From a bacterium (GTDB lineage Bacteria; Patescibacteriota; Patescibacteriia; UBA9934), in assembly GCA_027592325.1 (NCBI GenBank), contig JAQCKO010000006.1, positions 1-59,038 on the forward strand: DNA of 59,038 nucleotides, in the 5' to 3' direction. This document shows positions 2,011 through 44,977 of the stretch, piece after piece. A program made the translations under genes and the position numbers. A model generated the notes under the pieces. The model ran no database searches. It was not told where the DNA came from and saw only the letters and a program-made list of their open reading frames with translations. Every line of letters begins with the position of its first letter. Position 1 is the first letter of the stretch.

Positions 2011-2043
2011 AGACACGAAGCGTAACAAAAATTTGTCGAACAC

Positions 2044-2078
2044 AAAAGAAAACCCCCGCCCAGCAAGCCGGACGGGGT
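2044..2078 (-). terminator. Intrinsic terminator 35 nt upstream of queA
   Basis: ACCCCGUCCGG-CUUG-CUGGGCGGGGGU then UUUCUUUU on the minus strand. Confidence 0.7.
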
Positions 2079-2300
2079 AAGAGGCAGAGGCAGTATCTGC
2101 TAATTGTCGTCGTCGAGTACATCGTCATGCACTCGACGACTTCAAACCGGCTATCAAGGCACTCGCTACTGCCGCGAGTGTTACATCCTTGACAGTGCCC
2201 CCCGTTTAATGCGCTAAAGCGCTGGGGAGCTTATGCCGTCGAGCAATACGGATTATTAGGTCCGCACCACTCCCTTTTATTCAGCTTGCGAACGAACTGA
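2044..2300 (-). ncRNA. Candidate ~255-nt structured RNA / queA leader
   Basis: Promoter, five or more hairpins whose G.U pairs all fit the minus strand, then a terminator; no long ORF. Confidence 0.55.
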
Positions 2301-35380: not shown

Positions 35381-35697
35381 AGCAGAAGTATAACAAACCG
35401 TGTACCACCACACCTGGGCGTTAAAAGGGTGCTACATGAACCAAACGCTCCGTAACCAAGTTACGGAATGATGGGTTCATCGTTGATGTTAAACGAGCGA
35501 AGCGATTTTGTCACAACGTTCCGCAGTATGCGAAGTCCCGCCCTTCTTTATCAGCACAAACTTTCACTTCACAACAAATCTAATTTACCGCTTTAAACTC
35601 TCAATTTCAAGAGCGGGATTTGAGTGAAGTGAAGAAGAAATTATTGATTTTTTTCCTTAAATTTAGGGCTTTTTTTAATTTTTTTGTCCTTCGTAAC

Positions 35698-35726
35698 TTG
35701 ACAGGTGGGAAGAGGTCTGCTATGAT
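35698..35726 (+). promoter_or_regulatory. Sigma70 promoter with extended -10
   Basis: TTGACA-17-TATGAT preceded by TG. Confidence 0.75.
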
Positions 35727-35764
35727 GTAAAGTCGCAATTCCGCGACTAATGTAGGAGGACAAC

Positions 35765-36151
35765 ATGAAGTACGCTTTTGTTCGGTACGACGTAAATCGC
35801 AAGGTTGCCGATGGCGGCACCAGCTTCCATAGCGTTCTGATCAAGGGAGAGGCGTCTGAAACCCGCGAATCCTGCCAGAGGTGGATCGAGGAGAACTTCT
35901 CGCCCAACGGCCCGGTCAGGATCCTCTACCGATTCGAGGTACCGGAGGTGTGGACAGAGGATGCGGGCGAGTTCGACGGCTGCCTGAACAGCGCCCTCGA
36001 TGCGGTGACGGGTCTCGACGCACTCACTAACAGTCCTCTGGCGTCCGACCTTCTCGGCGCGATCTTCATGGCGGGGTTCACCTGTGGTATGAGGTTCGAC
36101 TCGGAACTGCAGTCGGCGTTCTACCGAGGTGGCGCAGCCAAGAATAAGTAG
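35765..36151 (+). CDS. Hypothetical protein (antisense minigene inside S1)
   Basis: 128 aa, SD AGGAGG, own promoter, hairpin CGCCCTGTTC/GGACAGGGCG at about 36174-36203. Confidence 0.8.
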   Translation: MKYAFVRYDVNRKVADGGTSFHSVLIKGEASETRESCQRWIEENFSPNGPVRILYRFEVPEVWTEDAGEFDGCLNSALDAVTGLDALTNSPLASDLLGAIFMAGFTCGMRFDSELQSAFYRGGAAKNK

Positions 36152-36296
36152 CTATCGTGTACTTCCGTCAAAGACGCCCTGTTCGAGACATCTTGGACAG
36201 GGCGCTTCACTTTCTGAGAGAAAAAATTGAAAAGAGCCCAATTAAAAATGAAAAGCAAAATCAATAATTTCTTCTTCACGCAACCGCATACTCAGT

Positions 36297-36382
36297 GTTG
36301 TGCGATGTCGCGTAGCGATGAGCACGACAGCGACGATAGGCGCCGCCGTTGTGACGAAGAAGCGAAGCGATTTTGTCACAAC
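36297..36382. repeat. Empty micro-cassette module B + mini-site + D
   Basis: Same module at 43499-43584 and 44632-44717. Confidence 0.8.
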
Positions 36383-36956: not shown

Positions 36957-37045
36957 GCCTAACGGCGGCGCCTGATGCGATCGTTTCGAGAGATAAAACC
37001 GAAGGTTTTAGATCGAGAAATGTCGCATAGGCGCTGCCGTTGTGA
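36957..37045. repeat. attC-like site S3 (type A)
   Basis: AACGGCGGCGCCTGATGCGA...TCGCATAGGCGCTGCCGTT; followed by D at 37039-37073. Confidence 0.8.
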
Positions 37046-37066
37046 CGAAGAAGCGAAGCGATTTCG

Positions 37067-37184
37067 TCACAACGTTCGCGCATATGCAGAGTTGTTGCGC
37101 GGTACAATTTAGCGCGGAGCGCTCTACCGCGCAACAATTTGGGTGAGCGACCGCAAGGAGCGAACTGCATATGCGCTGTTGTAC
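37067..37184. repeat. attC-like site S4
   Basis: CGCATATGCAG / CTGCATATGCG arms. Confidence 0.78.
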
Positions 37185-38557: not shown

Positions 38558-38863
38558 TTATTCCGTTCTATCTAAAATTATTCTTTGCTTAAAACCACCA
38601 CGTTCTTTCGCTTTTTTCTGGCGGACTTCTTCGAGCATCTGCAAATCCACACCTTTCAGAGCGCAAATTGCGTGTAAAACTTCTAAAATATCAGCGGCCT
38701 CTTCCACGCTTGGATTTTCTAGAAATTCACCGACTTCTTCGTGCAACTTGCGCGTCAAAGCTTCCTCGTACTCTTTTTCTTCAGCAATATGAGTAATCGG
38801 CGTCTCACCTTTATTTTGTATGATCTCGGGAATGTTATCCCTGACTAATTTGTTGTATTCCAT
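38558..38863 (-). CDS. MazG-superfamily NTP pyrophosphohydrolase (KLVRD-IPE type)
   Basis: YNKLVRDNIPEII, KLHEEVGEF, EAADILEV, RGGFKQRI. Confidence 0.85.
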   Translation of the reverse strand: MEYNKLVRDNIPEIIQNKGETPITHIAEEKEYEEALTRKLHEEVGEFLENPSVEEAADILEVLHAICALKGVDLQMLEEVRQKKAKERGGFKQRIILDRTE

Positions 38864-38908
38864 AAGAAAAAGCGGAATTAATATATAATAGGTTGTCTTG
38901 CGATTTCG

Positions 38909-39036
38909 TCACAACGTTTCTGACATGCGAAGTTGAAAACCCCCGCCTCCTAGTTCAATCTTATCAATAAGAGCAGGGTTTTCAATTTGGGTGAGGGCTT
39001 TCATAAAAAGCCCGAACCACATGTCCAGTGTTAGCT
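38909..39036. repeat. attC-like site S7
   Basis: GACATG / CATGTC arms; AATTTGGGTG...AACC core. Confidence 0.72.
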
Positions 39037-39205
39037 GAAATATTCCTTTTCTTTTCCTACGATAGTCGGTTGTTTTGAAAATTTTCAAATTTCTTTTCGA
39101 CAATGAGGAGGAAGAGCGAATATTAACAATTTAACACACAAATGGTAGTTTGTAATGTCATTTCTTGACCCGATCAGCTGTGGTTAGCTGGTATTGGAGG
39201 AGTCC

Positions 39206-39589
39206 ATGAATCGCACGATCAGGCTGACCGAGCTGTCTTTCGAGGACGGCATCACCAGACGGGACTCTGAGGTGAAGTACTTCGTTCAGGCGGAGTACAG
39301 CTACGTGGAAAATGAGGTCATCATGGGCCTTTACGCTGGTGACGAACACTTCGACCGAGTGTGGAGCTTTCCGATCGAGCTCCTGCTCGAGGGCCGAGTG
39401 GTCGACTTCAGCAACTTTGAAGGCCCTTACATCCTCGCCGATGCAGTACTTGCAATCGTCGCCGAGAACACGTCCGTCAGGCTCCACTTCGTGGAGGACC
39501 GAAGCGTAGTTAGCATCACGGTTTGTGATGAGACCGTCTCTCACCCTCTGGACAACGACGTGGCTCGCCGGATGTTCAGAGGGATCTGA
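39206..39589 (+). CDS. Hypothetical protein (antisense cassette minigene)
   Basis: SD GGAGGAG at 39196, ATG 39206; hairpin GAACCGCCTAC/GTGGGCGGTTC downstream. Confidence 0.8.
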   Translation: MNRTIRLTELSFEDGITRRDSEVKYFVQAEYSYVENEVIMGLYAGDEHFDRVWSFPIELLLEGRVVDFSNFEGPYILADAVLAIVAENTSVRLHFVEDRSVVSITVCDETVSHPLDNDVARRMFRGI

Positions 39590-39723
39590 CCTCCGATCGA
39601 CTCCCCGCCCCCTACGAACCGCCTACTGGTTCATCTGGTGGGCGGTTCTTCGTTTTAGAAAGAAATTTGAAAATTTTAAAACAATTGGGCGACAGCCCAG
39701 AAAAGAAAAGGAATATTTCAGCT

Positions 39724-39780
39724 AACAGCGACGATAGGCGCCGCCGTTGTGACGAAGAAGCGAAGCGGTTTCGTCACAAC
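39724..39780. repeat. Mini-site + empty micro-cassette D
   Basis: AACAGCGACGATAGGCGCCGCCGTT then GTTGTGACGAA...TTCGTCACAAC. Confidence 0.78.
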
Positions 39781-43419: not shown

Positions 43420-43584
43420 GCCTAACGGCGGCGCCTGATGCGATCGTTTCGAGAGATAAAACCGAAGTTTTTAGATCGAGAAATGTCGCATAGGCGCTGT
43501 TGTGCGATGTCGCGTAGCGATGAGCACGACAGCGACGATAGGCGCCGCCGTTGTGACGAAGAAGCGAAGTGATTTCGTCACAAC
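43420..43584. repeat. attC-like S13 (type A) + B + mini-site + D
   Basis: Near-identical to 44553-44717. Confidence 0.82.
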
Positions 43585-44203: not shown

Positions 44204-44527
44204 TTATTTATCTTTTTTCAGCCATGCATTGCTGATCCACTTTTTATCAATAGCTTCTTCTAAGTCGATACCGAGAAGATGAGCATTGACCATTGCCATA
44301 CCAACAACATCAGCAAGCTCTTTTGCCACCTCTCTTTTTGAAACATCTTCCGTCACATGTTTCTCTGGACGACTCTTTTTTCTATGAATCAAAACTGCTT
44401 GCGAAAATTCACCAACCTCTTCATATAATTTTATCAATGCGAAATCTTCGTCAATTTCAACATCATACTCCTTACCGTAACGGATAGCATTCTCCACTAC
44501 TTTTTGTTGTATATCTTTGAATTTCAT
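44204..44527 (-). CDS. MazG-like nucleotide pyrophosphohydrolase
   Basis: KLYEEVGEFSQA, KELADVV, DLEEAIDKKW. Confidence 0.85.
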   Translation of the reverse strand: MKFKDIQQKVVENAIRYGKEYDVEIDEDFALIKLYEEVGEFSQAVLIHRKKSRPEKHVTEDVSKREVAKELADVVGMAMVNAHLLGIDLEEAIDKKWISNAWLKKDK

Positions 44528-44552: not shown

Positions 44553-44717
44553 CGATAACGGCGGCGCCTGATGCGATCGTTTCGAGAGATAAAACCGAAG
44601 GTTTTAGATCGAGAAATGTCGCATAGGCACTGTTGTGCGATGTCGTGTAGCGATGAGCACGACAGCGACGATAGGCGCCGCCGTTGTGACGAAAAAGCGA
44701 AGCGATTTCGTCACAAC
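44553..44717. repeat. attC-like S16 (type A) + B + mini-site + D
   Basis: First module of the array in transcription order. Confidence 0.82.
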
Positions 44718-44775
44718 TCGTTTTTATCCGAACATTATAATACGATTTTAGCAATTATTGTACATAATACGAACT
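44711..44775 (-). promoter_or_regulatory. Candidate attI site and Pc promoter
   Basis: GATAAAAACGAG|TTGTGA core, 9-bp direct repeat, extended -10 TGCTAAAAT. Confidence 0.45.
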
Positions 44776-44901: not shown

Positions 44902-44977
44902 TGGTGCGCCGGGTGGGATTCGAACCCACGACCACGGGCTTAAAAGGCCCTTGCTCTACCAACTGAGCTACCAGCGC
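44902..44977 (-). tRNA. tRNA-Lys(UUU)
   Basis: 76-nt cloverleaf, anticodon TTT, TTCGAAT T-loop, encoded CCA. Confidence 0.97.

Follow-up and report, generated by a model that had tools for sequence, protein, structure and literature searches.

The subject of this analysis is a 697-nt segment (positions 39030-39726) of a 59,038-nt stretch of DNA from a bacterium of the Patescibacteriota (UBA9934; assembly GCA_027592325.1, contig JAQCKO010000006.1), the whole of which is referred to as the window. With a probability of about three in four, this segment forms the inside of a single gene cassette that belongs to an integron-like array. The two long inverted-repeat arms that enclose it are ordinary, cargo-independent termini of a large cassette family, and the cargo between them is, judged from its composition and signals, likely to be a gene of foreign codon usage with its own ribosome-binding site and terminator, facing against the array; it probably carries its own promoter as well. 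The initial annotation had described the segment as an engineered-looking capture of a foreign, self-expressing gene between cassette arms. The foreign look of the gene, its Shine-Dalgarno sequence and its terminator stood up to analysis, whereas the arms did not prove to be a special wrapping. The further suggestion that the arrangement hints at how cassettes are made is a possible hypothesis.

With boundaries set from the R boxes, the whole cassette measures 811 nt and lies on the minus strand (38915-39725), extending from the TTAGCT just past the upstream crossover point to the G of its own attC-like site. Read on the minus strand from 39725 to 38915, it consists of TTAGCT, the right arm, the cargo, the left arm, AGCTAAC, the attC core and G. 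The attC-like site (38908-39036, minus strand) reads on the plus strand as GTCACAAC (38908-38915), GTTTCTGACATGCG, CACATGTCCAGT and GTTAGCT (39030-39036), and it shows what defines an attC, namely the outer boxes GTCACAAC and GTTAGCT, the complementary pair CTGACATGCG and CACATGTCCAG as inner boxes, and folding into a hairpin. At the 5' end of the cassette, TTAGCT (39725-39720, minus strand) pairs with the cassette's own R'' box, AGCTAAC (39036-39030, minus strand), at the start of a 28-nt repeat. The site belongs to two of the repeat families of the surrounding array (D7 and D9). These families (D2-D14) span 35.4-44.75 kb, their members being built as RYYYAAC, inner box, inner box, GTTRRRY, and the cassette open reading frames (ORFs) of the array lie on the minus strand, their products including MazG-like, AAA kinase-like, LD-carboxypeptidase, serine hydrolase and PLP enzyme proteins.

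The right-hand end of the cassette is marked by its neighbour. Upstream, at 39725-39780 on the minus strand, lies a recurrent short unit, ACAGCGACGATAGGCGCCGCC GTTGTGAC (39725-39753), together with a mini-cassette devoid of an ORF that ends at GTCACAAC (39773-39780). The sequence to the right of 39724/39725 (ACAGCGACGATAGGCGCCGCCGTTGTGAC) is present in three further copies in the array, each with the same breakpoint and joined to a different neighbour, so that the arm end is a genuine cassette boundary; a loose end at 39725 was also seen in metagenome run X1. That the right-hand site is a randomly truncated attC was considered and dropped, as the short unit recurs three times with the same breakpoint.

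Both inverted repeats of the initial annotation were recovered. The one given as a perfect 27 bp starting at the R box is in fact 28 nt long and 100% complementary (39029-39056/39700-39727), and the second, said to contain one extra G, is a 23-nt repeat at 96% (39074-39096/39659-39681), the additional G being position 39077 in the left arm. A gapped alignment merges the two into a single arm pair of about 68 nt (39029-39096 versus 39727-39659), broken by that G and by about 12 non-complementary bases. The 27-mer of the arm had no match, even at 3 mismatches, when the sequence of the window was dinucleotide-shuffled 100 times. The left arm (39029-39096, no strand assigned) is a copy of a widespread 3'-end cassette module, reading GTTAGCTGA-AA-TATTCCTTTTCTTTT, followed by the small hairpin CCTACGATAGTCGG and then TTGTTTTGAAAATTTTCAAATTTCTTT, and it begins with the GTTAGCT (39030-39036) that is also the R box of the attC-like site. 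The right arm (39659-39727, likewise without assigned strand) is the first 68 nt of a widespread 5'-end cassette module, AAAGAAATTTGAAAATTTTAAAACAATTGGGCGACAGCCCAGAAAAGAAAAGGAATATTTCAGCTAAC, and ends with AGCTAAC (39720-39726). The arms are complementary because each starts at an R box, just as the two R boxes of any attC are complementary, with the pairing here extended to about 68 nt. A palindromic core, TTTGAAAATTTTCAAA, makes both arms double as direct repeats. The pair is single in the window, no second copy being found, yet six or more other cassettes of the array (I2, I4, I7, I8, I10 and I14) have R-box-anchored inverted repeats flanking their ORFs, of 20-40 nt at 73-96%. These repeats are the known complementarity between the 5' core remainder of a cassette and its own R'' box, extended outward.

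That the arms are not peculiar to this cassette was established by a survey of the modules in contigs from a collection holding one genome per species, in which loci were labelled L003-L120. The last 20 nt of the right arm had more than 118 exact matches in this collection, and among the matches listed the records are mostly of Patescibacteria, including Peregrini-, Gracili-, Magasanik-, Uhr-, Falkow-, Moran-, Kuenen-, Kerfeld- and Saccharibacteria; a few metagenome-assembled genomes (MAGs) bear other labels, some of them doubtful as the chromosomes are of about 1 Mb, and MAG taxonomy may be wrong. Around the 20-mer, conservation extends over a module of about 130 nt, which, among the matches listed, always ends in AGCTAAC. 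In the 118 loci listed it is then followed by an attC-like left half (60 loci) or by other sequence, most of it attI-like (58 loci). Modules of the left-arm type directly follow attC right halves in at least 30 loci of other genomes. The two types are complementary over about 70 nt and differ in their small self-complementary hairpin (CCGACGATAGTCGG-like versus GGGCGATAGCCC-like), which accounts for the non-complementary patch in the arms of the window. A second difference concerns two bases, which are TG in the left type and AA in the right. The left arm of the window has AA, found in none of 37 other left arms, and the perfect 28-nt match is therefore peculiar to the window.

The interiors joined to these modules vary widely. 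Downstream of the 5' module, 100 sense ORFs were counted, which BLASTP sorts into 67 unrelated clusters. In 18 cases two arms are separated by less than 2 kb, without an intervening attC-like boundary, and they enclose a sense ORF of 114-426 aa (15 pairs), an antisense ORF (L035) or nothing (2 pairs); in the two empty cassettes the arms are fused at the palindromic core, with 91 nt between arm starts in L064 (2679-2790) and 56 nt in L089 (225-300). One and the same module is found in many different array settings and breaks off sharply at the R box, and contigs of seawater and groundwater metagenomes show the same arms joined to still other interiors. What had looked engineered in the arms is thus the ordinary terminus of a family, given the more than 118 exact matches elsewhere, the 67 unrelated ORF clusters and the repeats within the same array.

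The cargo is an orphan ORF of 127 aa on the plus strand (39206-39589), antisense to the array. Its ATG at 39206 is preceded at a distance of 3 nt by the Shine-Dalgarno sequence GGAGGAG (39196-39202, plus strand), which is present as the initial annotation had it. The elevated GC content claimed for the ORF was confirmed (0.562 versus 0.452 for the window), as was a plus-strand intrinsic terminator (39616-39657), with a 14-pair stem (39616-39648) that starts 27 nt downstream of the ORF and is followed by the T tail TTCGTTTT. GC contents at the three codon positions (GC1, GC2 and GC3) are 0.59, 0.35 and 0.74. As this GC3 is far above the value of about 0.41 for the core genes of the window and of 0.26-0.39 for the sense cassettes, the gene looks imported. 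A candidate promoter region covers 39075-39196 on the plus strand, where a promoter scan listed TTGAAA-18-GACAAT (39075-39104) and TCGACA-16-AATATT (39097-39124), and where TTTAAC-17-TAATGT (39130-39158) and TTGACC-18-TGGTAT (39165-39194) were found by eye. The third of these is the promoter proposed initially at about 39130-39158; its elements are present, but they are weak and were not listed by the scan.

The product of the ORF has no family match in Pfam, NCBIfam or PADLOC, and no credible homologue in searches of 5.8 billion and 1.84 billion proteins. A word-indexed search returned the self match only, and an exhaustive phmmer search returned two proteins, P0002 and P0003. P0002 was rejected as a homologue; it consists of a seven-fold identical fibronectin-III-like repeat, of which a single copy scores 27 bits at 25% identity in an alignment that is out of register with the repeat, and its E-value of 4e-15 is an artefact because seven identical weak matches were summed. 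A single-sequence AlphaFold2 model had a predicted local distance difference test score of 38, too poor for a fold search. Rfam gave no match on either the arms or the cargo.

Two further units resemble the cargo in layout. The antisense cassette of L035, from a marine Patescibacteria MAG, has, in order, a left arm, a TTGACA-17-TATATT promoter, a Shine-Dalgarno sequence, a GC3-rich ORF of 123 aa, a terminator and a right arm; about 70 nt of its 3' untranslated region and terminator are homologous to those of the window unit. Its ORF has no homologue and no match in Pfam, NCBIfam or PADLOC, and a scan of JGI metagenome contigs for the terminator shared by the two units gave 0 matches. The second is a sister unit within the window (35506-36303), which has a TTGACA-17-TATGAT promoter, a Shine-Dalgarno sequence, a plus-strand ORF of 128 aa (35765-36151, GC3 0.76) and a terminator, and which is flanked by a perfect 23-nt inverted repeat (35629-35651/36257-36279). 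Unlike the main cassette, it sits inside an attC-like site, where it replaces the small second hairpin of the site. The only homologue of its ORF is P0005 (64% identity, locus L121), encoded between a TrmB regulator gene and rpsA/rpoB; this is an ordinary chromosomal gene without flanking inverted repeats, so that the check proposed in the initial annotation, for homologues outside cassettes that lack the arms, comes out in its favour for this sister unit. BLASTP shows no relation among the three antisense ORFs, whose GC3 is 0.68-0.76, against 0.41 in host core genes. On an attC-like site of L035, a sub-threshold Rfam hit to Clostridiales-1 was also noted (2023-2150, minus strand; 33.6 bits versus a gathering cut-off of 48, E 4e-4).

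Beside related arrays, a tyrosine recombinase of 270-285 aa was found to the right of the module in 31 loci, divergently oriented in 30 of the 31 and within 250 nt in about 22. Example loci, all in MAGs of the candidate phyla radiation (CPR) and adjacent to attI-like sites, are L013, L025, L052, L057, L091, L094 and L104, with about 24 more. These recombinases are closest to XerA (PDB 5hxy, E 1.7e-44; NF040815, 225 bits versus a cut-off of 220). On the integrase model TIGR02249, the cut-off of which is 265 bits, they score 216-222; the match is split in two, with profile positions of roughly 180-250 left out, and in an alignment to IntI4 (2a3v) chain residues of about 190-240 are unmatched. 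According to a passage of PMC9668308 that cites Messier and Roy (2001), a complete integron has an adjacent intI, a tyrosine recombinase with an IntI-specific additional domain. The cassette has the structure by which gene cassettes are defined, and the system resembles an integron in its workings. As the recombinases are below the integrase cut-off, skip the IntI insert and resemble archaeal XerA, however, it was not filed as a canonical integron. At the end of the window's array, an attI-like TCGTTTTTATCCGAACATTATAATACG follows the last R box (GTCACAAC) at 44717-44750, and sequence of the same type lies between module and recombinase in at least 20 genomes.

Several of these results weigh against the segment being a self-expressed antisense cassette of an integron-like array. 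Recombinase homologues are absent from the 59-kb window at E<=1, and the attI-like end of its array abuts a tRNA-Lys(ttt) gene (44902-44977, minus strand) instead of an integrase. The recombinases of related arrays lack the IntI-specific insert and can therefore only tentatively be credited with attC chemistry. The cassette itself may no longer excise alone, since the upstream site (39725-39753) is too short for an attC-like fold. On the side of the cargo, none of the candidate promoters scores well, and the gene caller of the source assembly favoured an ORF on the opposite strand.

A mechanism was considered in which the arms do more than mark the cassette ends. A circle junction modelled as right arm, AGCTAA|C, attC core, GTTAGCT and left arm is predicted, with DNA parameters, to form a single hairpin of about 250 nt (-77.7 kcal/mol); the same span in its array context gives -32.0 kcal/mol, and the attC core alone forms an imperfect hairpin at -22.6 kcal/mol. 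In an excised circle, the arms and the attC core would thus be expected to form one long hairpin, which, on this model, could be the substrate of the short XerA-like tyrosine recombinase, with the crossover inside the stem. If two adjacent cassettes both have the modules (e.g. L055), an array that is still intact also allows the long stem. Each arm further contains a small hairpin followed by TTGTTTT, facing inward, of which the scan flags the one in the right arm. More speculatively, and going by the motifs, these hairpins might block incoming transcription at both ends of the cassette and so leave the ORF to rely on its own promoter. The widest version of this idea, in which the arm pair serves as cargo-independent chassis for an integron-like system found throughout the CPR, in which that system works by a hairpin of about 250 nt and by a short XerA-like recombinase without the domain held to be essential in integron integrases, in which new cassettes arise as foreign transcription units land in the loop between the arms, and in which the window cassette, L035 and the 35765-36151 unit are all captures, is considered rather unlikely.

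Four other explanations of the segment were weighed. It is most improbable that the real gene is a 128-aa ORF on the minus strand (39158-39544), which would make the segment an ordinary sense cassette and the plus-strand signals a product of chance. This ORF was chosen in the ENA annotation (L001 11448-11834) and runs in the same direction as the array, but it starts with GTG, has no Shine-Dalgarno sequence and no Pfam, NCBIfam or PADLOC match, and its GC1, GC2 and GC3 of 0.73, 0.34 and 0.58 are atypical in that GC1 exceeds GC3. The plus-strand ORF, with GC3 > GC1 > GC2, its Shine-Dalgarno sequence at 3 nt and its terminator at 27 nt, is the better gene model of the two, and its layout is repeated, with clear promoters, in L035 and the 35.7-kb unit; the minus-strand ORF is probably its shadow. 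Scarcely more credible is an invertible switch, in which recombination between the arms would flip the cargo and the antisense orientation would be one of two states. The 28 nt of perfect inverted identity suffice for occasional homologous inversion, the AA in place of the usual TG in the left arm suggests an exchange of sequence between arms, and sense as well as antisense cargos occur between the same arms. Nevertheless, no strand-changing joint was seen in the contigs of two runs holding the locus, although contigs hide rare forms; the hairpin markers are at their usual places within each arm, neither arm has beside it any trace of the sense leader of 130-200 nt, and no invertase gene lies nearby. 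As improbable as the minus-strand gene is a non-autonomous transposon resembling a miniature inverted-repeat transposable element (MITE), which would have landed beside an attC site, its passenger gene framed by terminal inverted repeats of 68 nt. Long and nearly perfect terminal inverted repeats, many copies across genomes and variable cargo would all fit such an element. This reading was largely refuted by the absence of a target-site duplication (the flanks being ..GTCCAG-T / A-GCGACG) and by arm ends that are recombination boxes, the R boxes abutting attC-like or attI-like sequence in essentially every one of the 118 loci listed; moreover, the neighbouring enzyme is a tyrosine recombinase and not a transposase, and the window contains a single arm pair.

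The remaining explanation is the one closest to the initial annotation, namely that a cassette was freshly made when a foreign transcription unit entered the loop of a chassis cassette that was palindromic and had no ORF. The existence of empty arm-to-arm cassettes (L064 and L089), cargo limits that coincide in the window and L035 with the exact end of arm complementarity, the high GC3 of the cargo in all three antisense units, the sister unit's homologue in an ordinary chromosomal gene without repeats, and the 67 or more unrelated cargos between the same arms speak in its favour. However, neither an insertion mechanism nor a scar is visible. The empty cassettes may equally well be deletions, because arms that double as direct repeats through TTTGAAAATTTTCAAA offer a simple route from loaded to empty, and they are correspondingly weaker as evidence of capture. 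The terminator common to the window unit and L035 favours an older antisense cassette as their source over two fresh captures. Fresh genesis was therefore judged improbable, though less so than the three explanations above, and the segment continues to be read as the interior of a cassette in an integron-like array.

Additional features were noted in the array and in the module survey. The array of the window is wedged in a cell-wall gene cluster, the order being mraY-ftsW-murG, array, GT4 glycosyltransferase, cation ATPase and Mur ligase; an exact look-up of the MurG protein, aimed at sister strains, gave no record. The array contains two distinct cassettes for small MazG-like/PRA-PH-like pyrophosphohydrolases (38558-38863 and 44204-44527) and several ORF-less mini-cassettes or candidate nested short sites (36296-36378, 37027-37087, 39725-39780, 43500-43584 and 44633-44724). 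The repeat families of the mini-cassettes are 61-178 nt long with 4-6 copies and include a 12-bp perfect hairpin, CGTTGTGACGAA/TTCGTCACAACG. Among the surveyed loci, right-type modules open a conserved 5' leader of about 200 nt before unrelated ORFs (L003-L120), with a median of 176 nt from R box to start codon, composed of the R box, CTTTTCTTTT, a small hairpin, TTGTTTTAAAAAATTTTCAAATTTCTTTTT, TAATTATAGAGGGGAATAAGGTG, a further hairpin and TTTATAAGGGGAAAACGAATACAATAC; it may serve as a promoter and leader carried by the cassette itself. The 3' module of sense cassettes runs past the arm into a hairpin with the invariant loop GAGGGG(AATTAAA)GGGGTGAAT (e.g. L072 6030-6090), the stem of which covaries freely, with compensatory changes in 13 of 16 pairs across 22 sequences; this hairpin has no Rfam family and is absent from the window unit. 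In L092 (Falkowbacteria, about 1100-1240 as oriented), two tRNA genes and a terminator lead directly into the final 50 nt of the right-arm module, with an attC-like site behind it, so that another array borders tRNA genes.

These observations touch on two open questions, the origin of integron cassettes and the minimal needs of an integrase. In full-text searches of the literature, no paper describing integrons or attC arrays of CPR bacteria came up, and CPR integrons go unmentioned both in the archaeal-integron paper and in that on IntegronFinder 2.0 (PMC9024848). About 68 nt of each cassette end are conserved over more than 100 species-level genomes, mostly of the CPR, whatever the cargo or its orientation and even when the cassette is empty, and this common frame makes cargo boundaries comparable across hundreds of cassettes. 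A direct test of recombination could now draw on a recombinase, an attI-like site and a substrate with a defined long stem. For the original finding the outcome is sobering, as the arms are the family's normal cassette ends rather than a special capture device.

Compared with the integron cassettes of class 1 and Vibrio chromosomal integrons, the array shares a single orientation of promoter-less-looking ORFs, imperfect palindromes with RYYYAAC/GTTRRRY boxes and a 5' core remainder complementary to the cassette's own R'' box, and its relatives share an attI-like site beside a divergent tyrosine recombinase. It appears to differ in a complementarity that runs on for 20-68 nt past the R boxes, and it differs in modules beyond these boxes that are kept across cassettes and more than 100 species-level genomes, as a conserved 5' leader of about 200 nt and a conserved 3' module of about 135 nt. 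Vibrio chromosomal integrons also hold reverse-oriented, self-expressed cassettes such as those of toxin-antitoxin systems. The cargo described here likewise faces against its array and appears to have its own expression signals, but it is a single orphan gene with no recognisable partner and no PADLOC or Pfam match. With MITEs, the cassette shares long terminal inverted repeats in many copies, and it differs in its lack of target duplications and in ends that are recombination boxes. Archaeal XerA is the best-scoring match of the neighbouring recombinases, which, unlike XerA and bacterial XerC-XerD, are found divergent beside cassette arrays and not acting at a single dif site; in contrast to integron integrases, they are without the IntI-specific insert. 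The window, having no recombinase homologue and hence no intI, does not hold a complete integron. It is in this respect similar to a cluster of attC sites lacking integrases (CALIN) as defined by IntegronFinder (PMC9024848), an array with no integrase in the window, but it differs from a CALIN in that the array keeps, abutting the tRNA-Lys gene, an attI-like end of the type found beside recombinases elsewhere.

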